A DNA stretch of 51,757 nt, taken from Squalus acanthias. Taxonomy: Eukaryota. The notes beneath the pieces were generated by a model, which was given only the letters and a program-made list of their open reading frames with translations, was not told where the DNA came from and ran no database searches. The stretch covers positions 496,001 through 547,757 of the forward strand of contig JASTWF010000323.1 in the NCBI GenBank assembly GCA_030390025.1, given 5' to 3'. Position 1 is the stretch's first letter. Every line of letters begins with the position of its first letter. This document shows, one piece after another, positions 20,404-51,757 of this stretch. The position numbers and the translations under genes are program-made.

Positions 20404-20468
20404 TCGTTTTTGTCGATTAAAGTATAAGATAGAGTATAAGAATATATGTAACTATTAATACGGATCAC

Positions 20469-20780
20469 ATGGGTGACGAGAGGAGACCTCTTTCACCGGA
20501 CGTTCCGGCTATAGCCACCAGTGTCACTGTCGTTAAACAGTTCCGAGAGGCTAATTTGAAACTTCAAAGAGAAATGTTTAAAAAGGGGTGGAAAGAAACA
20601 AGCCCAGTAGTTAACCAAATAAAGTGGTGGGCGGAACAAAAGGTCGCCAAACAAGCCAAGTACGGGGTGGTTTTGTGTACTAGTTGGATGGATCAGATGG
20701 GACCTATAATCGTGGAAAAGGGGGGGAGACCGCCCCCGTTACAAGGATTCTTGAGACCCGTGCAGGAGGCTAAAGTCTAA
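20469..20780 (+). pseudogene. gag: Probable gag N-terminal remnant
   Basis: First ATG-initiated ORF after the PBS/leader (103 aa); assignment is positional only. Confidence 0.45.
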
Positions 20781-21684
20781 GTCAGTAATCTCCTGCACCT
20801 CAAGTCACCAGGGACTGAGAATCTAGACGACTTAAAAAACTGTGGTGACTTTGTCGTGGCTCTACAAAAAGAGACTCGAGACACGCCGACCTTAGATCCC
20901 AGCCCCCATCGGGGACCGTAGAGGTTCAACGAGTTGAGGCCACCCAACCCACGTGCCTCCCCCAAATACACTCGTATCTGTCCCGCTTCCATCTCGAGCA
21001 GGAAAAGCTGCTGAGACGCCTATGTAAAAAGAAAAAAAGAGAAATTTAAAGATTTATCGACATGGAAGTTATTAATGTCTGTGCCGAGACAAATAAAACA
21101 AGTAAAATCCAGGATTTGCTGAGTGAAAGGAATCTTGAAAGCAAAAGGAATGCTGAGATCTAAGTTTGGGTTAAAGTGTGGTTAAATAGTGAAAGTTTTC
21201 CTGACTGTGAATGTTTAAGAAGTTAGAGTATTTATTTTGTCTAAAAGTCTGTAAAAAAAATGTCTGACATTTTTGTTTCTGCTCCACCCACTCTTTTATT
21301 CAGACAGCTAAAAGCTGTTTAACCCTTTGAAGACTTGTCTTGAATGATGGAAAAGCGTGTGTTGTTTTATGTTTGTTAATTGTTTTACAAAACATAAGCT
21401 TCAGCCTTGAAGTCACAGTTGCCAATGTGCCTGGAAGAAAATGAATTTGAATGTTTACAAGGCATGGGTAATTGTTTCTTTGTTAACGTGGCTATGGTTT
21501 CTTTCTTTTCCAAGTGATACTGGTTAGTTTTTAAAAAATGATCTGGATTGAATTGGAGTTATTGAGGTTAATTAACCTATTAAAATCAGACTTTTATTGT
21601 GCATGGTGAAATTCTGGTTGGTGTAAATTTGTGTAGACCGCATTGAATAAGATATTTAATGGTCTGAAACCAGACTTTAAAATA

Positions 21685-22215
21685 TTTACAGTCTTGGATA
21701 CAGAACGGGTTCTGGTCCATACCATTGGCAGAGGAATCACAAGGGAAATTCGCCTTTACTGTCAGGGATAGACAGGATACATGGACCAGTGTCCCGCAGG
21801 GGTTGCACAATAGTCCAAATATATTCCACCAGGTACTGAGTCAAGCCTTACACGAGTTAGATCTATCAAAGTATCAGAGTGCCCTACTCCAATATGTCGA
21901 TGACATAATGATTGCATCAGAAGACGCCAAAATACACATGGGAGCATTACTAGCCACCCTCCAGACACTTAAGAAAGCTGGCTTTAAATTGAACCCAAAA
22001 AGGCACAGGTTGGACTGTCCAAAGTAAAGTATCTAGGACACGAAATTAACCAGGGGTATAAGGCACTCCTGCAGGAACAAAAGGCAGCCATAAAAGACAT
22101 GCCAAGGCCAGAGACCGTCCGGGGAGTGAGGTAAGTGTTGGGACTATTTAACTACTGCAGGAATTTTATATCAGACTTTGCAGGGAAAGCAGAGCCGATT
22201 CAACGGTTAGAAAAA
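21685..22215 (+). pseudogene. pol: Reverse transcriptase fragment
   Basis: DIQNGFWSIPLAEESQGKFAFT...VPQGLHNSPNIFH...LQYVDDIMIAS...GFKLNPK, then VKYLGHEI and LGLFNYCRNFI; frameshifted, RNase H region deleted. Confidence 0.93.
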
Positions 22216-22219
22216 GGGG

Positions 22220-22990
22220 GGAGAAATATTGCCTGGTAATAATTGACCAATTTACCAGATAGGTGGAAGCATTTGCCACCCGAGACTGCTCAGCAAGGAC
22301 AGTAGCACAAATACTGGCCAGTGAAGTAATACCCAGATAGGGAGTCACACTCCAAATTGACTCTGATAATGGTATGCATTTTTTAAAAAAAATAATGAAG
22401 GAAACTTGTAAGCTGTTAAATGTAACACAAAAATACCACCTACCATATCATCCCCAGAGCTCGGGGATGGTAGAAAGAATGAATAGGACACTGAAAAACG
22501 CGCTGACAAAAGCCATCCAAGAAACAGGGAAGGGATGGTCAGAATTACTACCCAGCATTTAATGAGGCTGCGAGCCACCCCAGGACGGACGACCGGACTG
22601 AACCCTTATGAATTAATGACAGGACGAGCGATGAGACTGCCGGAGGATCTGACTGGAGGGGTGGGAGAACCAGGACCAGTACAAGATAGATTAAGACGAT
22701 ATTTAGTACAACTAAACCAGGAGGTACAAGCACTAAATACAGAAGTAAGGAACCAGCAACAGATTAAAGATCTGGAGAGAAAAAATACTGGACTTAAACC
22801 AGAGGAGTTGCCCAAAATTGGCCAACAGTTAATGACACAAGTTATTGGAAGAAAGGGAATGGAACCTCGGTGGATGGGGCCATATACTGTATTAATGACA
22901 ATTGATACATGTGTTTGTCTACAGGAACCTCCGTTTGCCTACAGGAAAAAAAATGAATGTAAGATGGAGACACTGGAGCCAGACCAAGCC
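22220..22990 (+). pseudogene. pol: Integrase fragment
   Basis: KYCLVIIDQFTR*VEAF, QIDSDNGMHF, YHPQSSGMVERMNRTLKNAL, TGLNPYELMTGR and WMGPYTVL (GPY/F). Confidence 0.93.
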
Positions 22991-25569
22991 GTTGATGGGG
23001 CACGGGGAAGAGATTTCCCCATCTCTTGGGGACCCTATGATTAAAAGGAAATAATAACGAGTATTGACCTGTCTTTTCTCCCCTATATTTGATCAGGACC
23101 GGATTTCGAAGGGCTAAGTCGATTCTGCGGGTCACTATTTTACCTGTCTCTTTCTTACAGATGAGCGGGCCCAACCTCGGTACTGCCATCACTTCCGGGG
23201 ATGGGATCCTGCGAACTCTCATTACTATACGACTCTAACCTTCCCCGGGACTCACCCCTTGACTCTAGAGTTCCGATTATCTCCCTTTTGTGGTCGGACT
23301 ACCGGACCCCTCGCTCTACATCCCAACAGAACTCAGAATCTTTTATTCACCCTACACCGTGCAGTGAAGATTGACCGGTTCCGAGACACAGCTGCTCTTT
23401 GGGAACCGCTGGTGTCGGGACTGGAGGACGTTCCCCAGGGGATATCCACTTCCTTTTATAGGCCCTCCTACCTCCGAAGGAGGACAGTGCAACCTGTATT
23501 CACACATTCCCGTCCGACGGCTCCTAACCCTCACCGAATTATGTTAAGTCAGATATGTTACATTGAGCCACTGTCAGAAGGCCACCGCCTCCGTCTCAAT
23601 GTCACGTATGAAGTAGCCTTAACCCCTCTCCGAGCCTTGCGCACACGACTAATAGCAGGACAGACCCAAAGGGCGGGGGGGGGGGGGGGTGTGCAGAGAC
23701 AGGCAGAGAGAGAGAGAGAGAGCCTGCTAGTTACCACAAGCCAGTGCTGAGACTGTTAAACGAGCTGGACTCTTTATGCCTAGCGGTGATGTAGGATCCC
23801 GATGGGGTGGCTTATCATGGGAATGATAGGGTTACTGTTCGGGGAACAAACAACACCTACCACGGCGCTGGGGTTCTGCGTCGACCGGCCAGGAGCCCCG
23901 TTTTTCTGTGAGATGACCCAAAACACACAAGGGGGTCTGTGCCAGTAAAATCACAGGAAGAAAGGACAATATGAAATATGACGTAATTTGCTGTTTTCTG
24001 CAAGAATGTGCTATTTTGTTTTGTTTTATCTGTTGTGTTCGTGCTTAGTTAAAGTGTGAAAGTACAACAGTTTTTTTGGATCGGGAATTTTTTTTTAAAT
24101 TTATGTAAAGTGACGCAATTGCGTGCGCCTGACAATGTTTTGCTCCACCTTCTTAAAGACATGCGAAGGTGTTAACCCTTTTCACTGACAGCTGTTTAAG
24201 TTCACCGAGCAACAACTTTAGTATGACATTTAAAGATATTGGAAATTATTAAAGTTAAATTACTTAATTTTAATTTAACATTTCCCAGAAGGAAAATTAT
24301 GATTTGATAAATTAACCCCTTGGGCTTTAAGCAGAGTCACAATGGATTATCTTCTTTCTTTTGTTATATGGAAGTTACCTTGTAAACTAATTGCAGCACT
24401 TCTGTCTCCAATGTTAAAACACTGTGTAAGCCACCTAGCCTGGAAATCACTTGTTTCTGAAATTGGAATTGATAAGATAAATTGATAGAAATGAAATTGA
24501 ACTTTGACAAAACCTGTCAGTTCAACAGTACTGCTGTTTGGATTTCGGGATAATTTTGAAATGACAAAATGGACTCAGGCACTATATATTGGGTTACTTT
24601 TGGGAACATAAAAGATCCTCTAAAATAGTGAGAAATAAAAAAAACGTTAATAACTTGGACCAAGTGAGAACGTTTGATCTATGTTTTCAATCTTAAATAT
24701 TGTACTGGACAGTAAAGTTTCTCCAGGGCTCATGAATGAGATATGAATGGTAATTAAAGGGAAGTGATTGAAGGTGTAAGATTGAAACAGGAGAATTACA
24801 CCACTGAATAGGAATTTTATAAGTTTTCTAGTGAAAGTCAGGAAAGAGTAGCTAAGAATAGTAAATTGATAGCTTTCTCTTGGAGACATTTGTGTCCCTG
24901 CCTCTAATGAACCTTTTTAAGAAAACTGAATTTGATAGCCCGGCCACTACCCAAGACATCGGGACCAGGCAGAGGAAGATGAACAAAGACCTCCAGACAA
25001 TCTTTTGATAAGATACCTGAAAGCCCGAGAAAGGCACATGTGGCATGATATGGAGATACCGATATGAGTGTGCAAATGTGATTTGTTACGTATGAAGCAA
25101 TTACCATCCGCAAATGTATGTTGAATTTGCACTGAAGAACGGGTCTCAGACATGCTCAGTTACTTGACAACAGCAAGACATGAAATGATTAATTTGGCTC
25201 AGGAGAGCGAGACAACTTCCAAAGCATTGACACATACTCCATCGAGAAACTATCTAATTAATGAAACAATCAGAATAGAGTTAAACACACTGGTATCTGT
25301 TAGAAGGATTGAACATTGAAGTTGAAGTGGAGAGTTACCTGGAATCTGGATTGGGACAATTGAGGGCTAAGGAGAAATCATGTTTAGCAAGAATTATTCT
25401 CAAGATGGATACGAGTAAAAGAGAAATCTGGAGAATCTTTTAAGTCCATGATTTGTTGATTAGATGTTAAACTGTAATGTCGCTTGAAATGATTGTAAGA
25501 CTGAATTTAACTGTGACTGTAATGATTGTGTTTTGTAGGTAACAGAGCGTGGGAAAAACCAGTACGAAT

Positions 25570-25950
25570 CCAGTATGAGGTGATTTTGGTGGTGCCTCCT
25601 GTATCACTACTACCGCAACTACCATGCTTTATGGGTCTAACAGGACCTGTCCTATCAACCAACACGTTTTTAAGTATGAGCTGTACAATTATGTAGCACA
25701 AATCGAATACTACATTCCCCCGTTGTCTAAGGGTATCACTGAGCTCATGATACGACTGAACTCCTCCCTAAAGCATTTTTATGTTTTGGAGGAAGGTAAC
25801 TCGAGAATAGATATTGAAATTGACAGCATAGAGGACAACTCATACTGGTGGGATATTGGGCTTAATATATCAGCACTCCCTTATTTCACACGCTCTGGTA
25901 GTTCTCCAACTTGTAATGCTAGTGTATATGTAACCTATGTAGTAAGATGC
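25570..25950 (+). pseudogene. env: env C-terminal remnant of the first provirus
   Basis: ELYNY...IPPL...WWDIGLNI...ISHALVVLQLVM aligns with ELVNY...VPHL...LWDWGMNV...ISHILVIVQLVM of the env at 28937-30740. Confidence 0.75.
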
Positions 25951-26682
25951 ATAAGCCAATTGGGTACTCATGCCTATGACTAACCAGCACTAACAAATTA
26001 ATTGAGCACACCGAAAGAGAAGATCCGAAGCAAGGTAGAGGAGACCCCAGGCGTGGTAACATCAGGAAAGATAGAAGAAACAGAGGATACCCCAGGCAGG
26101 GAAGAATTGGAAAACCGGAACAGTGAATTGAATGTAATGATGGTGAAAGGTGACCACATGGGTGGTCATTTGGGACTGGGGACTAAAGACACAGATCCAT
26201 CCATGGATCCGACTGATTTCACATGTATGAGTCGTGGTGCAGTTAGTAATTGTCCTGACCTTGTTATGTATGACATGCAGGAAATGTAAACGGACTCGGG
26301 CGAAACAAATTGCAAAGCAAGTGGTTAAAACTGTTAATGCTTATATTGCTCCTACCCCAAGCATTTCAGATGATGACTTTAACAACTTGTTGGAAAAATC
26401 AAGTGTATGAATAATGAAGCATTTGTATAATGAATCGGGGAATGCCTAAATATTAACTTTACTCATCTGATGCTTACCTGCTGCCTAGACGGGAGGCCAC
26501 CCCGACAGGATTCACACTAGACCATATGCATCAAATGTGCGGCCTACCTGGAATAACCAAAGGACTGGGGGGAGGAGGAGTGTAGAACAAATTGGGGTGG
26601 GGGGGGGGGGGGGGGTTACAGGAAAAACCTTCATCATTCGTGCTGTTTGATCCGGGAAAACCTATATGCGTTTCTGATATAA

Positions 26683-27257
26683 TAGCCCAGAAATTGGCCT
26701 CTCCGGCTTGCTGCGGGGGTAAGGATCGCGCGCGATCTTACCTACCGCGCCTGCCGTTCTGTTCCGGGCCCACACGAACTTCGGGTCCCGGGCCTCTCCC
26801 TGGTGCCGGCGCGCAGTGTGTGCGTGTCGCAGAGGCGCAGTTAACCAATTGAAACAAAAATTTAAATATTTGCAAAAATTTAAATTCTTTTTAAAAGTTA
26901 TAAAAATAAACTTACCTTTCTTTAAAGTCTCTAAAAAGATAAACCTGTTGAAAAAAATTTAAAATAGTACTTAATTAACTACTTACCTTGTTAAAAGGGG
27001 GTCTTATGCCTCCTTTTTTCATTTGTAAAATCTTCCATACTTACCCTCGCGTTCAAACCTGAAAATAAACCTAAGTGTGCTGCATGCGCACAGCCTGTAG
27101 TGCGCACGTGGTTCACTTAGGAACCGCCCCCATCGCAATATCGGAAGTGCCGGTTTCCCGCGCATGCGCATTGCATGCAGGAAACCGGCACTTCGGGACA
27201 CAATACGGGTGAGTACACAGTGCGTAAGCTCCCGTATTCTGCCGAATTTCTGGGCCA
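26683..27257. mobile_element. Harbinger-like MITE nested in the provirus
   Basis: TIRs TAGCCCAGAAATTGGC / GCCGAATTTCTGGGCCA flanked by TAA and TTA; shares the GCCGGTTTCC..GCATGCGCA.TGCATGC..GAAACCGGCA palindrome with 2487-3183. Confidence 0.8.
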
Positions 27258-27339
27258 TTATACACTCACTAGCTTATCACACTATTTAGCGTAGAGAGCA
27301 CACTCTGCAACCCCCTTCAAGGTTACTTTCCGGGGGATT

Positions 27340-27350
27340 GGAAGGGGGGA
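27340..27350 (+). promoter_or_regulatory. Polypurine tract
   Basis: GGAAGGGGGGA immediately before the 3' LTR. Confidence 0.85.
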
Positions 27351-27351
27351 C

Positions 27352-28096
27352 TGAAGGATTCAGCTTGTACTGAAGGATCCAGCTTGTTCCCAAAGAATTC
27401 TGGGATACTTGACTATTTTAACTGAAAAGGTTCAGCTTGTTTCCAATGAATTCTGGGATACTTGACTATGCAGGTTTAGCTGACTGAAACACATTTGCAG
27501 ACAGCAAGGGGCCTCTTCTCTTATCAAACTTCGGAATGTGTTTGTATTCACAGCCTCAGTAGAGCCATTGTCAAAACACAGCCTGGCCTCCCAAAAGATA
27601 AGGGTGCAATTAACAACCAACACTGTTCCAGTCACTGAGCGCAAAAGCCATTACGGCCTTGAGCCATCCCGCTTGTTCGACAGTTAAGGATATAAAATGT
27701 TTTCTTAAACTATAAACTCTGCCTACAAAGGGGAAGAGATAAAAGCAGGAATTTGGGGAGTAGGATGAGACAACCAACTTCTGTGACTGGCATGGTCAGC
27801 GGGTATCCGAGTTCAAGGGGAGGGCTCGACAGTTGGGTGACTAACCATCTAACCAATAGAGATTAACTGTAGTGACACTGTTTGTATATGTACGCCCCAT
27901 TCTGAAGTAAGTGGGCGGTGCTTATAGAAATGTATAACTTGAATGAACCGTTACTTGTCCCTCAGAGAGTGAACCCCTAACCTGAGGAAGCTGAGTGGCT
28001 CTCCCTTGTGCACAAGTCTTTTGTTTGTTATAATAAATTCTGAACTTGTCCGCAATTCCGTCTCCGTCTGAGATTTCTCCAAATTCAAATCTAACA
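27352..28096 (+). repeat. 3' LTR
   Basis: TGAAGG...TCTAACA, colinear with 19282-20004, with a 19-bp duplication at its start. Confidence 0.95.
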
Positions 28097-28830
28097 CTGC
28101 CTAGTGATCATAGACCAGTTTACAAGGTGGGTGGAAGCATTCCCCCCTAGAGCCTGTAATGCTCAGACTGTGGCCCGAATATTTGCATACGACGTGATAC
28201 CGAGATGGGGGGTCCCGTTACAAGTAGATTCAGATCAAGGTACCCACTTTACGGGAAAGGTAAGGTACTGGGAGTAAGACAAAAGTTCCACATCCCCTAT
28301 CATCCGCAAAGCTCAGGCATGGTAGAGCGAATGAACAGAACCTTGAAAACAACCTTAAGCAAGGCCATAGCCGAAACCGGACAGGGATGGGTGGATGTCC
28401 TCCCGTGTACCTTGATGAGGCTGAAATCCACCCCAAACAGGATGAGCGGACTGACACCATATGAAATCATGACTGGACGAGCAATGCGTCTGCTGGAAGG
28501 AGTAGCATGTGGTAGCGAGGGACTAGGACTCTTAAAAGATAAAATTCGGAAATACGTACAAACATTGGATAAACAATTGAAGGAGCTCAAAAAAGAAGTC
28601 AAAGAACAGCAAGACATTAGAGATAAAAATACACAAAAGCAGGGGGCCTCGGAGCCCCTTCTCAAGGTGGGCGAGCAGGTATTTGTTAAAATATCGCCAG
28701 AGAGATCGGGATTCTCACTTAGATGGACCGGACCATTTGACGTTATCATGACCAGCGATACGTGTGCATGCATAGATATGAGGGGAAAGGGAGATGGAAA
28801 CATTGGACCGAACTGAAACGATACAACAAT
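28097..28830 (+). pseudogene. pol: Integrase of a second, related retroviral element
   Basis: CLVIIDQFTRWVEAFP, QVDSDQGTHF, YHPQSSGMVERMNRTLKTTL, GLTPYEIMTGR, WTGPFDV. Confidence 0.93.
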
Positions 28831-28936
28831 AACCCATCTGACCATAAATCCCACAGGAATAATGGAATAAACACCGGAGATAAACTAACATCTGGTGACG
28901 ACCAGGCTTCTGCTTAATTTACAGCGAAACTTCGCC

Positions 28937-30740
28937 ATGAAGATGGGATTACTGCTGGGAATCGTATGCATCACGAAATAAGTTAAGGGACATCGCACAT
29001 TACACGACAAGTATATAACGAAGAAGCACCATGTTTTAATGGAACAATCATATTCGGAGTCTCATCCACTGTCCCCAATACACAGAAAGAAGAGACAAGC
29101 GAACCGATGATGCTACAATGTCCAGATATGAAACCTGGACCCACGAATGGATTAGTATTATTTACCGAAGGAGAACAATTGTATGGTAACGTGAGACATG
29201 AAATTGTACCGGTACTAATGAACCTAACCATGTTACAATGGCCAGGATATTGTGAGAGGTTTAACAAAACCAAAGAATTGCATGCATATATGATAAAGAA
29301 TGTAATTAACCAAGCTGCTGATGCGACAGGGGCCATTAGTTTCAGTGGACATGCTGCATTCCACCAAAGGATTAAGAGGAGCTCAGGAACCGCCATACTC
29401 ACAGGAATAAACACAGGGACATCATTCATTAATGTCCCAGATATACAAGGAGTCCAGATTAGTGTGGAACGACTGCAAAGGGTAATACAGCAGATTTTAG
29501 AGAAGGAAACTGGTTTGGTTTGACAAGGATCAGAGTTAGGAGTTCATACGATAAGGAAATTACTCGAGGGAATCAAGTTTATAGAGGACCATGCTAGCAT
29601 TATCAACAAACTAAACCACAGAGGTGAGAAACAAGCAAAGGATGGGGTAGGGCGAGGCCTGTGTCATGCCTATGGCCAATGGATCATCGGACAGTTAAAA
29701 CATAATCTGGCACAGATACAGCGAGGCGAGGTACCAGAATGGATTAACAGCACACAGCTCCATGGCCTCAGCCAGAATCTAGGCCCTCTGAGTGCTTGAA
29801 CCCTCAAAGGAATGACCAGAGTATATCCGGTGATAGAAAAATGTAAAGCAGAAGTGACAGCAATGATAGGCATGGTACTCCTGATACCAGTGGTGGGACT
29901 AGACACGAGTTCATACCCACAGTACCAGGTAACAAATATAGGGATAGTGAGGGGTGAGACATACCTCCAATACTATCTGATTGATAGCTACGCCATCAGG
30001 AAGAATGGTACTATGAGAGGATTCTCCCTAAACGGATGCCACGGGAAAGGCACGCTTACGATATGCCCACATCCGGTAGGAGAAGGCCCTAAGGATGAGT
30101 GCAGCTATAATAAGACAGAGGGGTGTGTGTTGGAATTATGACATGTTGACCAACATCACACCGGCTCACGATACAGGGGAGAAGGGGAGTATTGTATAGC
30201 CACCAAAGAGACTGAGTACCAATATCGTAACCTTGTGTGTGCAATCACAATGCCCAACTTCTGCTTTACGCCAAAGATCCCTGTGACAATTGGACACACC
30301 AGATTGGAGTATGTACATTCAAGTGAGGAGATAAAACTCAATGTGTCAGATAATCTAAGGGACGAGTTGGTCAATTATGAAGATCCGGTAGGGGCCCTAG
30401 TACCACACCTGCAAGAGGATCTGCATGAAATGAAAGAGGATTTAAGTAAGATGGTGAAACAATACATAGTGTTGCAAAGGAATTTTGCAGAATTAGAAAA
30501 GGACATAGAGGTAGGGCTACAGGAATTCCCGTGGTGTGCGCAGCTGTGGGATTGGGGAATGAATGTCAACATATATCCATGGATCCGCATCATTTCTCAT
30601 ATATATTAGTGATAGTACAGTTAGTCATGGCTATAGGATGGGGAATAGCATCATGCACCGCTTGTAAAAAGAAACGGACCAAACAAAGAGCTAAAGCGAG
30701 CCAGAAAGAGCTGGAAAACGCAAGTTTGCTCAAAACATGA
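28937..30740 (+). pseudogene. env: Envelope/fusion glycoprotein gene of about 600 codons with 3 in-frame stops and 2 frameshifts; F-protein-like (lokiretrovirus-like)
   Basis: Splice acceptor TTTACAG at 28924, signal-like MKMGLLLGIVCI, furin site RIKR at 29368-29379, fusion-peptide-like stretch, heptad, Cys-rich domain, second heptad, TM and basic tail. ORFs 29107, 29812 and 30235 share one frame. Confidence 0.85.
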
Positions 30741-31119
30741 TGGGTATGCAGGGCCTCCCGAACCAGCGAACTGAGTACCACACATAGAACAGGATGGTCC
30801 CAGGCTCCATGCCTGCCTTGTACCCAGTGAGCTGCTTTCATCCAGTGTGGTTGAACGACACACACGTAGCAGGAAGATCCCAGCTGAGTGAGCTGCTCTG
30901 ACCCGGGACGATACTGTGGACCACGCACAATCCCAGATTCCATGCCCGGCCTGTGCCCAGTGAGCTGCCCTCTCTCACCCAGTGTGGTATTTTGCCCCAC
31001 TCACAAAGCAGGAAATCACAGGCTCCATGCTCGGTCTGTGTCCAGTGAGCAGTCCTCTCTCACCCGGTTGAATGTGGCCGGACTCTCAGGCTGACACCAG
31101 GAGTTTTGAAGAGTTGGTG

Positions 31120-31700
31120 CAGCGCCGCAACTGGCGGGAGCGGGGTGCTGCAGCGTGACATGTTTACATAGACAGCTCCTACTGGAACCCGTGAGTCGGG
31201 GATTTACACTCGGGCCTCGCGGGGATTCCCGGCCACAAACCCCTTCTTCCCTCCGGCGTTCCCCCGCTGGATGAGGAGCCACGGGCCGGGACATTGCCTG
31301 CCGCTGCCGCCCAACGCTGATCTAGCGACCACCGGCTCGCTGACAATCGCCGTCCTCTGAGGAGGCCTTGCGGCCAATCGGAGTCACCGCTGTGTGACCG
31401 ACAGCTGTCTCAGCCAATCAGAGCGCAGCGTAAACCGCGATGGACCAATCACAGCGGAACTGCGCGCGGACTTTGTGACGTTCAGCTCACCGAAACAATC
31501 GCTGAGCGCCGCTACCGCGCTATGACCAATCGGAGCACAGACGTGCGGTTTAATTCCGCACAGCGAAGTTGCGTCATTCTCCTCTCAGCGTCATTGCGTC
31601 CTTTTGCTTTGACAGACAGGCGAGTCATGCCGCTGCTATGCGCCGGTTCCAAAGAGAGAGAGGAGGCGGGACAGCGCTCTTAAAGCGGAGCCGCGCTGAA
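31120..31700. promoter_or_regulatory. CpG island promoter with CCAAT-box array
   Basis: High CpG density; CCAATC at 31374, 31414, 31445, 31526; TGACG sites; GC box GAGGCGGGAC near 31663. Confidence 0.7.
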
Positions 31701-36310: not shown

Positions 36311-36604
36311 TCATTCTATCCGGCCCGCTGGACGGGGCCAGAAATAGATCGCGAGTCGGAGCTCGAGCTGCATATCAGTCTGTCAACTTTCACTTCTCGT
36401 GAGTCAGAGACCGACTCGAACTGCAGCCAGGGAACACACATTAATACTTAATTCAATTTATCAATTTGTAAAAGTGATTCTCCCCAGCCTGATCTTAAAA
36501 GTATCCGTTCCGTGATCCTGGGCCCCAATGGCGAAGGTCCGTACCCAATATGCCCTGTCCATTTTAGAGTCGAGTCACATCTGCTCATCTCGATCACACT
36601 TTCA

Positions 36605-36721
36605 CTGAAGAAAGAGAGCGGCATTGCGTCTTTCTTCTCCCGGTACCCAGAGTACGACGGCAGGGGGATTTTCATCGCCGTCGAAGACACGACAGTGAAT
36701 CCTGGAGTACATGGATTCCAG
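36605..36721 (+). pseudogene. TPP2: Orphan fragment of tripeptidyl peptidase II N-terminus
   Basis: [39 protein letters not shown] versus recalled TPP2 [39 protein letters not shown]; similarity is absent on both sides. Confidence 0.85.
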
Positions 36722-37014
36722 ATAATGGCACGCGATTGTAGTTCAGGCCTTGCAAGGCCTCGGGCTCGCGTACTCAGCATGCTGAATAGAGAAAACCTTT
36801 TGTATGGGAGGCCACGCAGAATCGAGCCGCTCTGCCAAACAGTCACGTAGACTTTTAGTACAACATATAATCGATCGATCAATCATTTAATTAATTTAGT
36901 AACAGAATATTTGACTTGACATTGCGTGTATGTAAGATAGCATCTGACGATTATCTGAATTTATTTTTTCAGGCGGCAGCAGTTGATGATTCTGCCATCC
37001 CCATTTGCAGCATT

Positions 37015-38422: not shown

Positions 38423-38722
38423 GGTCTGTGGGTCTAATTCAAAGTTGGCCGCTTCCAATCTGCCTGAACAAACCCGTCCAACTGAGATATCTTGAACCCC
38501 GACCGGCCAGAATGTTGACACTCTGGGACACCTGTCTTATCTCAGTACCTTTCTGAATGTATTAGGCACTTGCAGAGATTCCCTGCAGCGGTTTCCTATT
38601 CCCATTTCTTGCGATTTTCAAATCTTCTCAGCCTCATTCCACCCCCGAACCCCTACCCTCGGGCACACTCATCCTAAAAAGAAACAAGATACGGATCTGA
38701 AGCTGTGATCAATGCAGTCAGT

Positions 38723-38728
38723 TTTATT
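38723..38728 (-). terminator. Polyadenylation signal of the beta-defensin gene
   Basis: AATAAA on the minus strand about 150 nt after the stop; conserved in the paralogue near 46752. Confidence 0.7.
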
Positions 38729-38880
38729 TCTGATTACAGCCCATTATTCTGATAGCAGTAATACAGGGGCAGGGGGAACGGGACCTAAACAATCAAACAG
38801 AGCCTGCTTCCCGTGAAGGAAGGTTTCATTCAGTGAGAACGTGGAGAGCTCGGGCTGGTGGGAATCCATCACTGGATCTT

Positions 38881-38996
38881 TCACTGTTTCGGAAAGCAAC
38901 ATCGGACCCCAGGGTAGCAGCCTAGGTTTCTGGCATGCACCTCGCTTGTGTTACAGTCGCCCTCACGACACTCTCCTCCATACCAGTTGCAGAGCA
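38881..38996 (-). CDS. Beta-defensin exon 2 (mature peptide)
   Basis: Acceptor TTTTGTATTTTAG, phase 1, then (V)LCNWYGGECREGDCNTSEVHARNLGCYPGVRCCFPKQ*; Cys spacing C-x6-C-x4-C-x11-C-x5-CC. Confidence 0.92.
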
Positions 38997-39339
38997 CTAA
39001 AATACAAAATGATGAATTGATTAATGGTTCTTTACACAGAGGGAGGGAGAACAATGAGAAAACATGACGCTGAGTCTGTCAGTGTTACTGGGACTGACTC
39101 TGGACCACACATGAACCTTAACTCTTCTATGATTAATGAAACTCCACACCACTCCCCCTCGCCTGACATGTACAGGCTCAATATTTGTCCTGAAGCGCAG
39201 CCCAAGGGGTTTTCCTCAGAATGGAGTCCACCACACCCGCTATCTGAGACCAGGGACACAGAGAATTAGGATCTGACATTGATATAGAAACTTTCCCGGC
39301 ACCAGAAGGGCCTAAAGAGATTCACAGACAATGGATTGG

Positions 39340-39680
39340 TTCTGAAGTGCCGACACTGTTCTGTCGGAAATGCGGCAGCCAATTAGCTCACAGCAAAGTC
39401 CCACAAACAGCAAATGAGATTTGACAGTATGGGGAGTCTCTGCTCATGTTGGTTGAGAGAGTGATGTTGGTCCAAGACACCGGGAGAACTCCCAGCTCTT
39501 CAAATAATGCCATCAGGTGTTTCCTGCCCCATGAACAGGTAGAGTGTCGCCGTTTAACATTTCATTTCCAACATGACACCTCAGACAGTGCAGCACTCCC
39601 CCAGTGCTGTCTGTTTGTACTGGACTGGGGCATCAACCCACAACTTGTTCACTCAACTCCCAACTGAGCCAAACTGACAC
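39340..39680 (-). mobile_element. Degenerate Deu-domain SINE in the defensin intron
   Basis: GCGGCAGCCAATT...CCCACAAACAGCAA...GACACCGGGAGAACTCCC...GACAGTGCAGCACTCCC is the reverse complement of parts of 1455-1926. Confidence 0.7.
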
Positions 39681-40374
39681 CCAGCTACTGACAATTGATC
39701 ATTTCACCGCTTGCCTCCTCTACTTAGACCATGTTCTCAAATCCCGATCTCCATGAAGGTTGCAGAATTATTCCAATTAAATAAACCTGTTTTGAAACCC
39801 TTTTGATCCCATTCCCTGCAGTCATGTTATGAAAAGCTGACTCATGTCTGGGGACCGGTTCCACAGACACCTCCAGTATCGCTCCCAATTCACCATTCTT
39901 CATCTGTGAGACTGGACAGTGAGTGTGGGGGAGAGGGACTGAAGGAACTCCCGCTCCTGTCCTCACAGAGTCCGCACACTCACACTTTGCAGCAGGTAGC
40001 AGTGATTGAGAGCAGCAACTGGGAGTTTCCCCTCCGTATTACCCGGGTACTGAGGCCAATTACAGACTCACCCAACCGGGTCCATGCTCCGGCTGAGATC
40101 CGCCCACTCGGCCCCGGCCAGTAATTTGTGCTTTTATTGCTGGTCTGTTTGGATCAGCAAACACCCACCATTCCCTCGACCCACTGAGGTTCCCGCTGAA
40201 TGTTCGGGGGATTTACCCGTGGAACTGGTTCAGATTAAATTCTTCAGACTTTCTTACAATCTCACAATCACCTTCACTCAACCAATCAAACCGTGACATT
40301 CAAACAGAGAGTAAAATAGTTTTAAAAATTAAAGCTGTCTGAACACTGGTTGCTGATAGACCGGATAAATGTAC

Positions 40375-40456
40375 CTCTAGGATGCTCCCCCATAGCAGGG
40401 CTGGGCTGAGTCAGCACCAGGAATCCAAGAAGCAAGAGGAGAGCTTTCATCATCAT
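40375..40456 (-). CDS. Beta-defensin exon 1 (signal peptide and short pro-piece)
   Basis: MMMKALLLLLGFLVLTQPSPAMGEHPR plus 1 nt (82 nt), GT donor, phase 1, in frame with exon 2. Confidence 0.88.
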
Positions 40457-40531
40457 CTTCTGTGGCATTTTCCAGAGTCCGGTTCAGGCGGCTGGAGAAA
40501 TGTTCTGACTCCGGACTCAGAGTTTGCTGCA

Positions 40532-40537
40532 TTTATA
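40532..40537 (-). promoter_or_regulatory. TATA box of the beta-defensin gene
   Basis: TATAAA on the minus strand about 76 nt upstream of the first ATG. Confidence 0.7.
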
Positions 40538-40734
40538 ATCTCACACACACGGGGAGTGGCTCTGCTCTCTGGAAATATCCTGGGAAAAGGCGTTTTCTTT
40601 CTGTGTGACGTGGATCAGTTGGCAGCTGGACCCAGTTGGCAGTTCTCGATCTTTCAGAAGACAAGGTTGTGTGTTTGGGCTGAACTCCAGGACTTAACTC
40701 CTGAGCTCAGCTGGCATGATGCGGCAGGTACACA

Positions 40735-40866
40735 AACATTATGGGAATCAGGCGGGGAAGTGGAGTTGAGGTCGAAGATCAGCCATGGTATTATTGAATG
40801 GTGGAGCAGGTTCGAAGGGCCGTATGGCCAACTCCTGCTCCTAATTCTTATCTCCTTATGTTCTTA
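40735..40866 (+). mobile_element. Short CR1 3' UTR fragment
   Basis: GATCAGCCATG..TTATTGAATGGTGGAGCAGG.TCGA.GGGCCG.ATGGCC.ACTCCTGCTCCTA...TATGTTCTTA. Confidence 0.75.
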
Positions 40867-40891
40867 ACAGGACATTTAACCCATCAAACCT

Positions 40892-42130
40892 AGGCCTAGA
40901 AATTGGATATGGCCCGAAAATGGGCGGTGTCATGGCCCAGTGCTGTTTGGCTGCGCCCGTTCAAAGTGGTCCAGGCAGACTGCAAAATTCATGCTGCCTG
41001 CTCATTTACATGATTGTAGTGCTGATGTCAGCGCTAAACGCGCTGCTGATTGGCTTACCACTCAACAGCTGGGCTAATATCGGGTGCAGTCTAATGGCCT
41101 GTAATGTCTGGCCCCGTCTTTCTGCACTACTTAAAGGGGAGGTGCTTTGATGCAGCAGCAGCTCCTTGTCACTGCAGTAGGAGTTGGAATTGCAGTAATG
41201 AGAACGAGCCACAAGGTCCTCCGATTCGGTTCTGGAGGCATTGGTCGTGGCAGTGGAAGGAGGCGGGCTGACCTGTTCCCGCAGGGTGGCAGGAAGCCAT
41301 CAGTGCACACTTCCAGAAGGCTGTGACAGGAGATAGCTGGGTACGTCACGGCCAACAGTGTCGTGTCACGGCCAACAGTGTCGTAGCATGAACATGGACC
41401 CACTGCCGCAAGAAGATTAATGACCTCACAAGGCAGGTCAAGGTGAGTGAAGGCTTCAGCAAATTCCATATCCCACCATCTGCACCACAAGCCTCAGACA
41501 CAGCTCAATGCACCACACCCCCATCACTCACCTACCTACCACCACTCAGACCCCACAATCATAGCTTCACTTCACCCTCACAACCTTACCACTGCTGCAA
41601 CACTCACACCCACATCTCACACCTTGCACACACCGACAGCTATTCAACTATGGCAGGCACATCACCCAAACACTCACTGACACACTTTCCCTTCTCTTGC
41701 AGGCCAAGGTGGCTCACAACCGCCGCAAGCAGCGGCAGACGGGAGACGGCCAAGCCGCTGTACAGACCTCTGCCAACTGGAGGAGACAGTGCTCGACATC
41801 ATTGAAGGGGAAGTCACCGAGGCCGCGACAACGCGATGTTGAAGCCCTTGGGGACAATAACGCTATGCTCATTCCTAATCCTTCTTCTCATATCCCACAT
41901 CCCCTCATCCCTCAACCTCTTCTCACTGACTAGCTGCTGATGCTGTATACAAGGAGATCTTGCTTTCCCCCTCCCCTCACCATAACCCGACTCTTGTGTC
42001 TGTCTGCTTTCAGATGAACAAGATCTGCCACCCGCATAGCCTGTCCCCGAAGTATTGGAGATGAAGAAGGTGGCACACGACACTGCATCTGACACAAGAC
42101 ACCAGCTCAGAAACTGGCACTGCACAGAAG
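40892..42130 (+). mobile_element. PIF/Harbinger-like transposon fragment with spliced Myb/SANT-like gene relic
   Basis: Left end AGGCCTAGAAATTGG resembles the MITE TIRs; SDSVLEALV...RRADLFP...QEIA..V...TWTHCRKKINDL, intron 41443-41702 (GTGAGT...TTGCAG), then AKVAHNRRKQRQTGDG. Confidence 0.75.
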
Positions 42131-44450: not shown

Positions 44451-44464
44451 TGATAGGTTTTTAC

Positions 44465-44840
44465 AGACACAGGCTGACAAAAATATTGAAAAACAAGGCC
44501 CAGTAGATTTAGAGAGGAGCACATCAGAGGCAAAGTGCACATAAGCGGGCGGAGAAGTCAGTGGACGATGACATGTAATAAAATGAATTCAGGAGAAGGG
44601 CTGAATGCGATATGGCGGCAGAGGTGCAGCAGAAGTTAGAACCAAAAGCAAGCTTCCCTCTCGATTATCAAATCTGGCAAATCCTGGACAGCTCCTTTTA
44701 AACCTGGAGGTGCAGAAGCCGTGATCAGCTCATGTAATGTGTTCAGAGCACAGGCCGGGCTCTGTGTTAAAGTGGTTGTGTTCAGATAGTGCTGGTACGT
44801 GAGGAATCTAGACTGAGAAGGTAGAAACTGAGAGGGGGAG
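44465..44840 (+). repeat. Segmental duplicate of 51320-51700
   Basis: TGAAAAACAAGGCCCAGTAGATTTA...GCAGAAGC.GTGATCAGCTCATG.AATGTGTTCAGAGCAC is shared. Confidence 0.9.
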
Positions 44841-44955
44841 GGGGGGAGGAGGGAGACTGAGAGTCAAAAAGAGGGACCAAGTGGAAGTGAAGAGAAAGGC
44901 TGAAAGAGTAAAACACCGAGGCAGAGAGAAAGATGAGAGAGGTAGAGCAAGGGTG

Positions 44956-45264: not shown

Positions 45265-45455
45265 AACTCCCTCTACACTGTCCCATCAAACACTCACAGG
45301 GCAGGCACTGCACGGGACAGATACAGAGTAAAGCTCCCGCTACACTGTCCCATCAAACACTCCCAGGGCAGGTACAGCACGGGTTAGATACAGAGTAAAG
45401 CTCCCTCTATACTTTCCCATCCAACACACCCAGGGCAGGCACTGCACGGGTTAGG
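45265..45455. repeat. 65-bp satellite, about 3 units
   Basis: CTACACTGTCCCATCAAACACTCCCAGGGCAGGTACAGCACGGGTTAGATACAGAGTAAAGCTCC. Confidence 0.9.
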
Positions 45456-45824: not shown

Positions 45825-46908
45825 GAGACTTGGGGTTGCTTGTGCACAAATCTTTGGGGGCAGGACAGGTTAACAACAGTCAGAACGTTATGTTTAACCT
45901 ATATAAAACACGAGTGCGGTCCCAGCTGGAGTATTGTGTCCAATTCTGGGCACCACACTTTAGGATGTTTTGGAGAGGGTACAAAGGAGATTTACTAGAA
46001 TGGTTTCAGTGATGAGGGATTACTGTTACATGGATAGACGAGAGATGATGGGATTTTCTCCTTGGAGCAGGAAAGGCCAAGAGGAGATTTGATAGGTGTT
46101 TAAAATCATGAAGGGTTCAGATAGAGTCAATAATGAGAATCTGTTTCTAATGGCTGAAGCGTCGATAACCAGAGGGCACAGGTGATTGGCAAAAGAACCA
46201 GAGGAGACATGAGGAAAAACGTGTTTATGCAACGAGTGGTTAGGATTTAGAATGACTGACTGAGGGTGCTGGATACAGATTCAATAATAGCCTTCAAAAG
46301 GGAATTGACTAAATACGTGAAGGAGAAATAATTGCCGTGATAGGGGGAAAGAGCGGGGGAGGGGGACTAACTGGATTGCTCTTCGAAAGAGCAGGTGCAG
46401 AGTCAATCGGCCGAAGGGCTTCCGTCTGTGCTGTATTATCACAGAATATATCACAGAATATCACAGAATCTATGATTATTATTATCATTCTATGATTCTG
46501 TAAGTGAGATATCTTGAACCCCGAACGGTCAAAGTGCTGCCACTCTGGGACACCTGTCTTATCTCAATACTTGTCTGAATGTGTTATTAGGCACTCACCG
46601 AGATTACCTGTAGCAGTCTCCTCTTCCCATTTCCTACGATTCCCAAATCTTCTCCCAGCCTCATTCCACCCCAAAACACCTTGTCCTCGGACACAGTGAT
46701 CCTAAAGAGAAACAAGACACGGATGTGAAGCTGTGATCAATGCAGTAAGTTTTATTTCTGAGTACAGCCCATTATTCTGACAGCAGTAATACAGGGTCAG
46801 AGGTTACGGGACCTAAACAATCAAACAGAGGCTGCTTCCCGTGAAGGAAGGTTTCATTCAGTGAGAACGTGGAGAGCTCGGGCTGGTGGCAATCCATCAC
46901 TGGATCTT

Positions 46909-47012
46909 TCACTTTCAGTCTGCAACATCCGAACCCACCGGGGAAGGATAGTGGGACAAATTTCAGGTTCGTGTTACAGGGGCCCTCACGATACAGTGTA
47001 CAAAGCCCTCTT
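46909..47012 (-). pseudogene. Degenerate beta-defensin exon 2 paralogue
   Basis: CTLYREGPCNTNLKFVPLSFPGGFGCCRLK; REG.CNT and CC retained, Cys2 and Cys4 lost, stop out of frame; 46503-46930 duplicates 38482-38905. Confidence 0.8.
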
Positions 47013-47089
47013 CTGCAAGAATATCAATCTAATTTTAATTCGCTTCTAGTTCAGACAAATAAGGGATTGTTGGGACAGAGAAATCCTAC

Positions 47090-47460
47090 CCGCGCCAAGG
47101 ACAACACCCCCTCCCCGTTCACACTGCCCGAGACCCCCGCACCCTCCCCGGTGCCCCTCCCCTCACCACGCCCGGGCAGCCCTCAGTCCCAGGACACTAA
47201 CCCTCAAAACCCAAGGCCGCGGTACGCGCTCTGCCCCGACTTCCGGCTCACTCAGTTTCGGTCATTTTTTCCTTTAACCAACTGCCTCCATCCAAGGACT
47301 TTCAATGGACATTTCTGTCCGCCCATTCTATTGGCTGAAAACAGGTGATTAACATCCCGCCCAGCAATCGATGCCCGGCGCGCTCGATCCAACCCCTCCG
47401 GCCGCCCGCTTTATAAATCGGAGATCAGGCAGCTGACCTTAGCACGAGCCTGGCAGAGCG
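47090..47460 (+). promoter_or_regulatory. CpG-rich promoter-like segment
   Basis: ACTTCCGG (ETS-like), several CCGCCC, ATTGG at 47330, TATAAA at 47412. Confidence 0.5.
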
Positions 47461-47461
47461 A

Positions 47462-48389
47462 GTGTGACCTCAGCAACCCGGCCACACGGGCCGTGTGACC
47501 TCAGCAACCCGGCCACACGGGCCGTGTGACCTCAGCAACCCGGCCACACGGGCCGTGTGACCTCAGCAACCCGGCCACACGGGCCGTGTGACCTCAGCAA
47601 CCCGGCCACACGGGCCGTGTGACCTCAGCAACCCGGCCACACGGGCCGTGTGACCTCAGCAACCCGGCCACACGGGCCGTGTGACCTCAGCAACCCGGCC
47701 ACACGGGCCGTGTGACCTCAGCAACCCGGCCACACGGGCCGTGTGACCTCAGCAACCCGGCCACACGGGCCGTGTGACCTCAGCAACCCGGCCACACGGG
47801 CCGTGTGACCTCAGCAACCCGGCCACACGGGCCGTGTGACCTCAGCAACCCGGCCACACGGGCCGTGTGACCTCAGCAACCCGGCCACACGGGCCGTGTG
47901 ACCTCAGCAACCCGGCCACACGGGCCGTGTGACCTCAGCAACCCGGCCACACGGGCCGTGTGACCTCAGCAACCCGGCCACACGGGCCGTGTGACCTCAG
48001 CAACCCGGCCACACGGGCTGTGTGACCACATTAACCCGGCCACACGGGCTGTGTGATGTCAGCAACCCGGCCACACGGTATGTGTGACGTCAGCAACCCG
48101 GCCACACGGGCTGTGTGACCTCAGTAACCCGGCCACACGGGCTGTGTGACCTCAGCAACCCGGCCACACGGCCCCACGGTCTGTGTGACCTCAGCGATCC
48201 GGCCACACGGGCTTTGTGACCTCATTAACCCGGCCACACGGGCTGTGTGACCTCAGCAACCCGGCCACACGGGCTGTGTGACCTCAGCAACCTGGCCACA
48301 TGGGCTGTGTGACCTCAGCAAACTGGCCACACGGGCTGTGTGACCTCAGCAACCTGGTCACACGGGCTGTGTGACCTCAGTAACCCGGC
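47462..48389. repeat. 31-bp GC-rich tandem array, about 30 copies
   Basis: Unit GTGTGACCTCAGCAACCCGGCCACACGGGCC; the first ~17 copies are identical. Confidence 0.97.
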
Positions 48390-48456
48390 AATTGGTTCTG
48401 GACGAGTGCACGAGCTGACTGATAGAATGGGCGGGACTAGCTCAGTGATGGACATG

Positions 48457-51066
48457 GCACCAACCTCACAGGATGGCCGTGTACCGAGCCCGGCCCCAGG
48501 GGCAGGGAGGGCACCAACCTCAAGGATGGCCGTGTACCGAGCCCGGCCCCAGGGGCAGGGAGGGCACCGACCCCACAGGATGGCCGTGTACCGAGCCCGG
48601 CCCCAGGGGAGGGGACCGACTCCACAGGATGGCCGTGTACCGAGCCCGGCCCCAGGGGCGGGGAGGGTACCGACCCCACAGGATGGCCGTGTACCGAGTC
48701 CGGCCCCAGGGGCAGGGAGGGCACCGACCCCACAGGATGGCCGTGTACCGAGCCCGGCCCCAGGGGCGGGCACCGACCCCACAGGATGGCCATGTACCGA
48801 GCCCGGCCCCAGGGGAGGGGACCGACCCCACATGATGGCCGTTTACCGAGCCCGGCCCCAGGGGAGGGCACCGACCCCACAGGATGGCCGTGTACCGAGC
48901 CCGGCCCCAGGGGAGGGCACCGAACCCACAGGATGGCCGTGTACCGATCCCGGCCCCAGGGGCGGGGAGGGCACCGACCCCACAGGATGGCCATGTACCG
49001 AGCCCGGCCCCAGGGGCGGGGAGGGCACCGCTCCCACAGGATGGCCGTGTACCGAGCCCGGCCCCAGGGGAGGGCACCGACCCCACAGGATGGCCGTGTA
49101 CCGAGCCCGGCCGCAATGGCGGGGGAAGGGGAGGGCACCGACCCCACAGGATGGCCGTGTACCGATCCCGGCCCCAGGGGCGGGGAGGGCACCGACCCCA
49201 CAGGATGGCCATGTACCGAGCCCAACCCCAGGGGCGGGCACTGACCCCACAGGATGGCCGTGTACCGAGCCCGGCCCCAGGGGCGGGGAGGGCACCGACC
49301 CCACAGGATGGCCGTGTACTGAGCCCGGCCCCAGGGGAGGGCACCGACCCCACAGGATGGCCGTGTACCGAGCCCGGCCCCAGGGGCGGGGAGGGCACCG
49401 ACCGCACAGGATGGCCGTGTACCGAGCCCGGCCCCAGGGGCGGGCACCGACCCCACAGCAAGGCCGTGTACCGAGCCCGGCCCCAGGGGAGGGCACCGAC
49501 CTCACAGGATGGCCGTGTACCGAGCCCGGCCCCAGGGGCAGGGAGGGCACCGACCCCACAGCAAGGCCGTGTACCGAGCCCGGCCCCAGGGGAGGGCACC
49601 GACCCCACAGGATGGCCGTGTACCGAGCCGGCCCCAGGGGAGGGCACCGACCTCACAGGATGGCCGTGTACCGAGCCTGGCCCCAGGGGAGGGCACCGAC
49701 CCCACAGGATGGCCGTGAACCGAGCCCGGCCCCAGGGGAGGGGACCGACCCCACAGGATGGCCGTGTACCGAGCCCGGCCATAGGGGCGGGGAGGGCACC
49801 GACCCCACAGGATGGCCGTGTACCGAGCCCGGCCCCAGGGGAGGGCACCGACCCCACAGGATGGCCGTGTACCGAGCCCGGCCCCAGGGGCGGGGAGGTC
49901 ACCGACCTCACAGGATGGCCGTGTACCGAGCCCGGCCGCAGGGGCGGGGGGAGGGGAGGGCACCGACCCCACAGGATGGCCGTGTACCGAGCCCGGCCCC
50001 AGGGGAGGGCACCGACCTCACAGGATGGCCGTGTACCGAGCCCGGCCCCAGGGGAGGGCACCGACCCCACAGGATGGCCGTGTATCGAGCCCGGCCCCAG
50101 GGGCGGGCACCGACCCCACAGGATGGCCGTGTATCGAGCCCGGCCCCAGGGGCAGGGAGGGCACCGACCCCACAGGATGGCCGTGTACCGAGCCAGGCCC
50201 CAGGGGCGGGGAGGGCACCGACCGCACAGGATGGCCGTGGACCGAGCCCGGCCCCAGGGGCAGGGAGGGCACCGACCCCACAGGATGGCCGTGTACCGAG
50301 CCCGGCCCCAGGGGCGGGCACCGACCCCACAGGATGGCCGTGAACCCAGCCCGGCCCCAGGGGAGGGCACCGACCCCACAGGATGGCCGTGTACCGAGCC
50401 CGGCCCCAGGGGAGGGCACCGACCCCACAGGATGGCCGTGTACCGAGCCCGGCCCCAGGGGAGGGCACCGAACCCACAGGATGGCCGTGTACCGAGCCCG
50501 GCCCCAGGGGCGGGGGAAGGGGAGGGCACCGACCCCACAGGATGGCCGTGTACCGAGCCCGGCCCCAGGGGCGGGGAGGGCACCGACCGCACAGGATGGC
50601 CGTGTACCGAGCCCGGCCCCAGGGGCGGGGAGGGCACCGGTCCCACAGGATGGCCGTGTACCGAGCCTGGCCCCAGGGGAGGGCACCGACCTCACAGGAT
50701 GGCCGTGTACCGAGCCCGGCCCCAGGGGCAGGGAGGGCACCGACCTCACAGGATGGCCGTGTACCGAGCCCGGCCCCAGGGGCAGGGAGGGCACTGACCT
50801 CACAGGATGGCCGTGTACCGAGCCCGGCCCCAGGGGCAGGGAGGGCACTGACCTCACAGGATGGCCGTGTACTGAGCCCGGCCCCAGGGGCGGGGAGGGC
50901 ACCGACCCCACAGGATGGCCGTGTACTGAGCTCGGCCCCAGGGGCGGGGAGGGCACCGACCCCACTGGATGGCCGTGTACTGAGCCCGGCCGCAATGGCG
51001 GGGAGGGCACCGACCCCACAGGATGGCCCTGTACCGAGCCCGGCCCCAGGGTCAGGGTGGGCACCG
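48457..51066. repeat. 49/54-bp GC-rich VNTR, about 50 copies
   Basis: Unit GCACCGACCCCACAGGATGGCCGTGTACCGAGCCCGGCCCCAGGGG(CGGGG)AGG. Confidence 0.97.
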
Positions 51067-51319
51067 GGTTCAGTTGAAATCACCCAGGATTATGTTGTTA
51101 TGTAATTTACTCATTTAATAGATTTGCTCCAATTTTCATTCCAGTGTTAGGTGGTCTGTATGATAACCTTTTTAGCATTATTTTAACGTGACTGGGAACC
51201 CTGCTCTCCCGAGGCATGTTTTTCCTAAATGGAAACACGCTCAGATCAGCAGGAATCGCTTGCCAATTATTCAAAACTTTCAGATACATTTACAAAACGA
51301 CAAAACAGATTCAATTACA

Positions 51320-51700
51320 GAGACAGGCTGTCAAATATAATGAAAAACAAGGCCCAGTAGATTTACAGCGGAGCGCATCGGAGGCAATGTATACGTAAGC
51401 GGGTGGATGCGTCACTGGACGATGAAATGTAATAAAAAGTGTTCAGGAATGGGGCTGGATGAGATGTGGAGGCAGAGGTTAGAACCCAAAGCCAGCTTCC
51501 CTCTAGATTAACAGCGAAATCGTGCAGGACTCCAAGCCACTGGTGGGTTCCAACACATCCTGGGCAGCTCATTTTAAAACTGGGTGTGCAGAAGCTGTGA
51601 TCAGCTCATGCAATGTGTTCAGAGCACGGGCTGGGCTCAGTGTTAAAGTGTTTGTGTTCAGACAGTCCTGTTAGATCAGGAATCTTGAGAGAGGGGGAGA
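51320..51700 (+). repeat. Segmental duplicate of 44465-44840, running into a G/A-rich tract
   Basis: Colinear with 44465-44840. Confidence 0.9.
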
Positions 51701-51757
51701 GGCGGAGGGAGGGAGGGGGGAGAGGGAGGGAGGGGAGGAGGGAGGGGGGGAGGGAGG

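Follow-up and report, generated by a model that had tools for sequence, protein, structure and literature searches.

Reviews give the range of beta-defensins as "from teleosts to mammals" (PMC7203481), and the teleost genes comprise three exons, with Cys5 and Cys6 encoded on exon 3 (PMC3636224, PMC8231796, PMC11541337, and PMC3978493). In cod Defb, the cysteines stand at residues 31, 38, 42, 54, 60, and 61 and the conserved glycines at 36, 50, and 53 (PMC3636224). Fish beta-defensins mostly carry a charge of +1 to +5, those of flounder being anionic (PMC3978493), and for the non-cationic ones bacterial inhibition, leukocyte attraction, and increased phagocytosis are reported (PMC8698591 and PMC3978493). 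The family also includes mammalian sperm isoforms and a grouper isoform specific to pituitary and testis (PMC3978493). Two further systems are relevant, namely the big defensins, which have in common with beta-defensins a phase-1 intron just 5' of the cysteine module (PMC7203481), and the tick carboxypeptidase inhibitor, in which a beta-defensin-like fold occurs in two tandem domains (PMC6339383).

Among antimicrobials isolated from sharks and skates, a 2019 review names only transferrin, squalamine, and kenojeinin (PMC6795676), and the cartilaginous fish row in a table of a 2025 review holds kenojeinin only (PMC12734493). A shark skin proteome paper has defensin only in a reference (PMC10707392), and PMC10303038, PMC13337447, and PMC4364288 add no shark defensin. 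We found no published description of a cartilaginous-fish defensin in a search outside of which lay most subscription journals and the RefSeq shark models, so that an earlier account of a shark defensin, or a RefSeq model of one, may exist.

Here, we analyzed a 51,757-nucleotide stretch of the Squalus acanthias genome (contig JASTWF010000323.1, positions 496,001 to 547,757; hereafter, the window). On its minus strand, an initial annotation had placed a TATA box, two exons, a splice donor, a phase-1 intron, an acceptor, and an AATAAA signal, and we recovered all of these at the same positions (Table 1, copy A). The spliced frame is open, and re-splicing returned the proposed 65-aa product with identical residues. 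The annotation had also suggested that such a gene could easily be missed by automated methods; indeed, its product is absent from the protein collections that we searched. On the sequence evidence, copy A is a real, apparently intact, unannotated gene of beta-defensin type in a multicopy shark family.

Table 1. Coordinates of copy A, of its decayed paralogue copy B, and of the neighboring CpG-rich stretch within the window
Feature	Position	Strand	Basis
Copy A, kappaB-like 10-mer, ~35 nt upstream of TATA box (lead only)	40571-40580	-	regex scan with consensus
Copy A, TATA box TATAAA	40537-40532	-	read from sequence
Copy A, in-frame upstream ATG + 3 codons, candidate start	40468-40457	-	sequence; usage putative
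Copy A, coding exon 1, predicted signal peptide + short spacer	40456-40375 (82 nt)	-	sequence, hydropathy, -3/-1 rule
Copy A, phase-1 GT-AG intron	40374-38997 (1378 nt)	-	sequence
Copy A, coding exon 2, entire six-cysteine module + stop TGA	38996-38881 (116 nt)	-	sequence
Copy A, 3' UTR to AATAAA (38728-38723)	38880-38723	-	sequence; 150/158 identical to copy B
Copy A, downstream flank, duplicated along with copy B	38480-38722	-	209/243 identical; blastn
CpG-rich promoter-like stretch, where copy B intron would stand	47013-47460	.	CpG statistics
Copy B, exon 2, decayed	47007-46909	-	alignment to copy A
Copy B, 3' UTR (AATAAA 46756-46751) + downstream flank	46908-46502	-	blastn, alignment

The donor of copy A reads GAG/GTACAT and the intron ends in TTTTAG, preceded by an acceptor tract that is 65% pyrimidine over positions -30 to -4, with branch-like words (CTCAT, TTAAT, and TTCAT) upstream of it. 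The intron contains one old dispersed repeat (~39273-39605). Since the ATG at 40468 is the earliest past the expected transcription start and carries an A at -3, the precursor may extend to 69 aa if that codon is used. The kappaB-like word was the one match among 8 patterns in a regular-expression scan of 40457-41000 that had no chance control.

A search of all six frames found one six-cysteine motif of the copy A kind in the window. When bases 1-47400 were simulated 150 times under a third-order Markov model, the expectation for a loose form of the motif was 0.02 per window, and the strict form arose in 0 of 150, as opposed to one observed in each case. Such an arrangement could in principle be assembled by chance in repeat-rich DNA, a reading with which the results of the homologue and fold searches below would agree, as they returned neither a database homologue nor a fold match. 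Nonetheless, the expectation of 0.02 applies before the splice sites, signal exon, TATA box, and polyadenylation signal are counted, and both a paralogue and cross-species copies exist, so chance is all but refuted.

The cysteines of the copy A precursor lie at 30, 37, 42, 54, 60, and 61, which gives a spacing of 6-4-11-5-0 and a terminal CC. Its predicted signal peptide reaches a 9-residue hydropathy peak of 3.3, and by the -3/-1 rule the likely cleavage site follows Ala21 or Gly23, which would give a mature peptide of 42-44 residues. The predicted cut is separated from Cys1 by 6-8 residues, and the phase-1 intron falls two codons before Cys1. A phase-1 intron before the cysteine module also occurs in amphioxus and molluscan big defensins (PMC7203481), but the N-terminal hydrophobic domain of those proteins is absent from copy A.

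Several characters are shared with teleosts (cod Defb, PMC3636224; sea bass defb1/2, PMC8231796; seabream defb2, PMC11541337), including a precursor in the range of 63-71 aa, the x11-x5 spacing over Cys3-Cys4-Cys5, glycines before Cys2 and Cys4, and a low charge (+1 in cod). Cys4, Cys5, and Cys6 even occupy the same positions as in cod Defb (PMC3636224), whereas the Cys2-Cys3 gap is 4 in copy A as opposed to 3 in cod Defb and sea bass defb2. The two glycines of copy A stand two residues before Cys2 and one before Cys4, and the third fish-conserved glycine site is taken by an arginine at 50. Unlike the teleost genes, copy A has two coding exons with all six cysteines on exon 2, and in this single-exon module it resembles mammals (PF00711) and birds. 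The initial annotation likened the entire x6-x4-x11-x5 spacing, including the x4 between Cys2 and Cys3, to that of zebrafish defbl1. Mammalian beta-defensins have an x9-x6 spacing, from which the x11-x5 of copy A differs; copy A also departs from them in that it does not match PF00711 and is not cationic. It agrees with the mammalian genes in its two-exon layout with a separate signal exon, in its phase-1 intron, and in having clustered, fast-diverging copies (PMC4364288). Collectively, the cysteine spacing, the conserved intron position, the gene anatomy, and two of the three conserved glycines make beta-defensin descent of copy A highly probable, and its peptide is likely a shark beta-defensin.

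The initial annotation had regarded the product as a functional beta-defensin. Its type is borne out by the spacing, the signal exon, the intron, and two of three glycines, but the peptide is not cationic. More specifically, the predicted mature peptide has 5 acidic residues, 5 basic residues, and 2 histidines, which gives a net charge of 0 whichever of six cut sites is assumed (a charge of +2 would require both histidines to be protonated) and a pI of ~6.7-7.1. It is thus without the net positive charge of classical cationic membrane-lytic defensins. One N-x-S sequon is present, at Asn43. Olive flounder beta-defensins, which are likewise non-cationic, could serve as a functional model for copy A by their description only, and they differ in their pI of ~4 and their proregion (PMC8698591).

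Profile searches, proposed as a check of the defensin assignment, gave it only sub-threshold support, through a protein of beta-defensin-like fold; exon 2 matched neither Pfam PF00711 (Defensin_beta) nor PF13841 even at E 10. The sole Pfam match of copy A was I68 (PF10468), the tick carboxypeptidase inhibitor, with an E value of 0.023 and 15.6 bits against a cut-off of 25 bits, and NCBIfam yielded no match. Its PDB sequence matches, which included no vertebrate defensin, were 2k2z (E 0.07) and 1zlh (E 0.58), both of them the C-terminal domain of the same inhibitor. Since these are the best Pfam and PDB sequence matches (E 0.02-0.6) and the six cysteines align without a gap, copy A might be considered a secreted protease inhibitor built on a beta-defensin-like fold. 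We find this very improbable, because the matches are sub-threshold and consist mostly of a G-G-E-C word and the cysteines, copy A has a single domain whereas the arthropod enzyme inhibitor has two in tandem, and the gene structure of copy A is of the vertebrate defensin type.

In the ESM Atlas, the Defensin_beta (PF00711) cluster ranked first at 0.77, which we treat as a lead only, and 8 of the 10 best named matches fell in the Defensin_beta family or clan; when that family was skipped, the Atlas gave no usable match. No protein homologue was found in a set of 5.8 billion sequences using exon 2, exon 1, and the alignment of copies A and B (lengths of 17-97 aa), nor among 1.84 billion representatives. 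The exact exon-2 peptide was likewise absent from the protein collection, as expected for a peptide that is a fragment. AlphaFold2 was run twice on the 37 residues of exon 2 and gave a weak model each time (pLDDT 63, pTM 0.27-0.28); both place strands at Cys4 and at Cys5-6, and the second adds bridges near Cys2. Four fold searches (Foldseek, VIA) with both models returned no defensin match. Their sole row, a spider-toxin knottin at E 7.6, was dismissed as noise. The two models, both of low confidence at a pLDDT of 63, do not confirm a fold for copy A.

The initial annotation had further seen copy A as the only apparently intact host protein gene in the window. Indeed, the 30 stretches submitted to Pfam in search of other host genes (2 from copy B and 28 of 84 frames) gave only retroelement domains. 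However, copy A is not alone, as a decayed paralogue lies ~8 kb away at ~47007-46502. A blastn comparison showed 87% identity between bases 38480-38911 and 46502-46937. Copy B keeps Cys1, Cys3, Cys5, and Cys6; Cys2 is lost in a 12-nt in-frame gap, Cys4 is missing, and a frameshift beside the stop leads to a 77-aa read-through ending at 46772. Its acceptor is weak (46-50% pyrimidine vs 65% in copy A), it has no Pfam match, and its only PDB match is granulin at E 4. The window yielded neither a signal exon nor a promoter for copy B, nor any relic of its intron. These characters indicate that copy B is most likely a pseudogene fragment.

Copy B may once have encoded a four-cysteine peptide, because its internal gaps are in frame and the two lost cysteines, Cys2 and Cys4, bond with each other in beta-defensins. 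The chance that two lost cysteines form a bonded pair is 1 in 5, and a Cys2-Cys4 bond occurs in alpha-defensins too. The distance between Cys3 and Cys5 is 16 in copy B and 17 in copy A, and 16 would fit the x9-x6 spacing of mammals.

The divergence of the two copies is uneven. Over the coding exon, 69 of 96 positions are identical (72%), while the 3' UTRs are 95% identical and the flanks are 14% apart (counts in Table 1); Fisher tests gave p values of 7e-7 for coding vs UTR, 0.004 for coding vs flank, and 0.004 for UTR vs flank. The gap between coding exon and UTR, read from a single pair of which one member is decayed, would be consistent with a mature peptide that changes at an accelerated rate; gene conversion or constraint on the UTR could also contribute.

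The stretch where the intron of copy B would stand (47013-47460) has a CpG observed/expected ratio of 0.88, vs 0.58 for bases 1-47000. It appears unrelated to the copy A intron, given an intron-end identity of 56% vs 54 ± 6% for random pairs, and matches nothing elsewhere in the window. Its promoter-like motifs include CCAAT and CCGGAAGT (~47245), and a good donor, GTTAGT, stands at ~47200. If transcribed, this stretch could splice into the copy B remnant and use the copy B polyadenylation signal.

We also compared related sequences in public sequencing runs. Eight runs matched, none of them recorded as RNA, and four were compared, representing two organisms and two studies. In these, the contigs extend over the intron and the upstream flank as well as the exons, mostly at 90-95% identity. 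Exon-only cover, which a word share of 13-31% in the runs had suggested, was ruled out by the contig layout. The copy A joint 40375-38996 was not seen among 15 joints listed of 21, in runs that read as DNA-like. The four compared runs are therefore best read as DNA, silent on splicing either way and uninformative on the expression of copy A, since their contigs cover the intron and flank like the exons.

The number of contigs overlapping position 38893 was 5, 6, 7, and 12 in the four runs, and in one run (X1) the stretch 39133-39417 occurs in two versions (8 and 23 differences). Collectively, the contigs indicate several related copies in two other organisms and hence a multicopy family, an indication taken from contig layout, with depth figures not used as copy numbers; by comparison, teleost species have ~1-7 beta-defensin genes in the papers cited. 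A contig from organism B spans 38804-38991, and so all but the ends of exon 2 upstream of the stop is covered, gap-free and with 16 differing letters. Among 12 indels listed of 23, one, of 3 nt, lies in coding sequence. A letter variant at 38946 (runs X2, X5, and X6) changes Ser45 to Gly, so the sequon is not conserved. At 40322-40406, several X2 and X5 contigs match on both sides but not across, and the sequence around the exon 1 donor, on its exon and intron sides, accordingly varies strongly among related copies. Loose contig ends at 38890 (X1 and X2) resemble the tail of copy B but have a normal stop (agreement of 0.73-0.74). We had considered these ends as a four-cysteine subfamily devoid of Cys4, an idea that was dropped, as the 30 letters end where an x6-spaced Cys4 could sit.

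The broken copy B shows that copies in this family die, and the intact frame of copy A may therefore be that of a young silent duplicate which has not yet decayed and from which no peptide is made. Such a fate would suit a multicopy family with a dead member 8 kb off, in a window that is otherwise made up of retroelement pieces and satellites. Yet the TATA box, Kozak context, splice sites, and polyadenylation signal of copy A are all intact, the exon-2 contigs of another organism are gap-free with the sole listed coding indel in frame, and the 14% separation of the flanks implies that the frame has been kept at least since copies A and B split. Given these data, we consider a silent copy unlikely and hold that copy A is probably expressed.

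Other elements of the window were surveyed as well. Broken retrovirus-like pieces occupy ~20400-30600 on the plus strand, with a reverse transcriptase at 21668-22024, integrase-like frames at 22487-23041 and 28160-28813, and possible envelope-like frames that have no Pfam match; 19281-20004 and 27370-28096, which are 92% identical, may be LTRs. Two adjacent GC-rich satellites, at 47462-48389 (31-bp unit, ~30 copies) and 48456-51066 (54-bp unit, ~50 copies), create long spurious frames at the window end (47462-51066). A 67-bp repeat at 45267-45454 is presumably an elasmobranch repeat. Four tRNA-like sequences were found at 363-434 (Met), 8225-8300 (undetermined), 15479-15560 (Ser), and 16670-16743 (Thr), three of which lie in or beside long dispersed repeats and may belong to duplicated units or SINE heads. 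A second CpG-rich stretch (31000-31700; GC 0.60, CpG observed/expected 0.98) has no gene identified beside it, and at 36451-36882, in DNA that looks non-repetitive, two open frames (132 and 144 aa) overlap on opposite strands, neither of them with a Pfam match. A 400-bp element occurs twice (44461-44855 and 51315-51732, 75% identity), each time adjoining a purine-rich microsatellite. Because the first of the two is situated on the downstream side of copy B, the window may be followed, just past its right edge, by another duplicated unit that might include one more defensin copy.

As to what copy A may do, we postulate that its TATA promoter would be transcribed and that one splice would give a prepeptide, from which cleavage after Ala21 or Gly23 would release a secreted peptide of 42-44 residues. 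The mature form would be expected to fold into three strands with disulfides 1-5, 2-4, and 3-6. Its net charge of 0 would make for poor binding to bacterial membranes in salty shark fluids, and because of this we favor a leukocyte-directed role, in which, by analogy, the peptide would attract leukocytes, stimulate phagocytosis, and modestly inhibit growth rather than cause strong charge-driven lysis. Such activity would resemble that described for the anionic flounder (PMC8698591) and the +1 cod beta-defensins, the mode being borrowed from teleost peptides. Taken as a whole, the statement that copy A is an intact secreted beta-defensin serving host defense through leukocyte recruitment or priming and modest growth inhibition has, in our view, the balance of probability somewhat in its favor.

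An expressed peptide of beta-defensin fold could also act outside immunity, for example by coating sperm or by serving the reproductive tract as a ligand for a receptor. A net charge of 0 and an N-x-S sequon are ill-suited to membrane lysis, reproductive proteins too are generally known for fast coding divergence, and sperm isoforms in mammals and pituitary/testis isoforms in grouper provide precedents (PMC3978493). Still, we view such a role as quite improbable, given that immune activity is described for non-cationic fish beta-defensins (PMC8698591), that the sequon, by the Ser45 to Gly change, is not conserved among related copies, and that the kappaB-like word near the TATA box gives a weak hint of inducibility.

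Returning to the host-defense reading, copy A would belong to a duplicating family in which the mature peptide evolves fast and copies are born and lost. More tentatively, and with considerable doubt, we envisage a large, unannotated, fast-evolving shark family in which the one-exon cysteine module is ancestral and the teleost three-exon gene derived, fish-like x11-x5 and tetrapod-like x9-x6 spacings are mixed, the peptides have shifted from cationic charge in fluids high in salt and urea, and a four-cysteine offshoot without the 2-4 disulfide arose, of which copy B would be a remnant.

Copy A adds a member to the known beta-defensin family, in a lineage for which we found no published member. 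The presence of beta-defensins in sharks was already predicted by big-defensin ancestry, and a shark gene would date the family to the jawed-vertebrate ancestor. With big defensins as the outgroup, the one-exon module of copy A suggests that the intron splitting the teleost cysteine module was gained later, this being the simplest reading. In addition, copy A would supply peptides with which to probe how uncharged defensins act in salty, urea-rich fluids.
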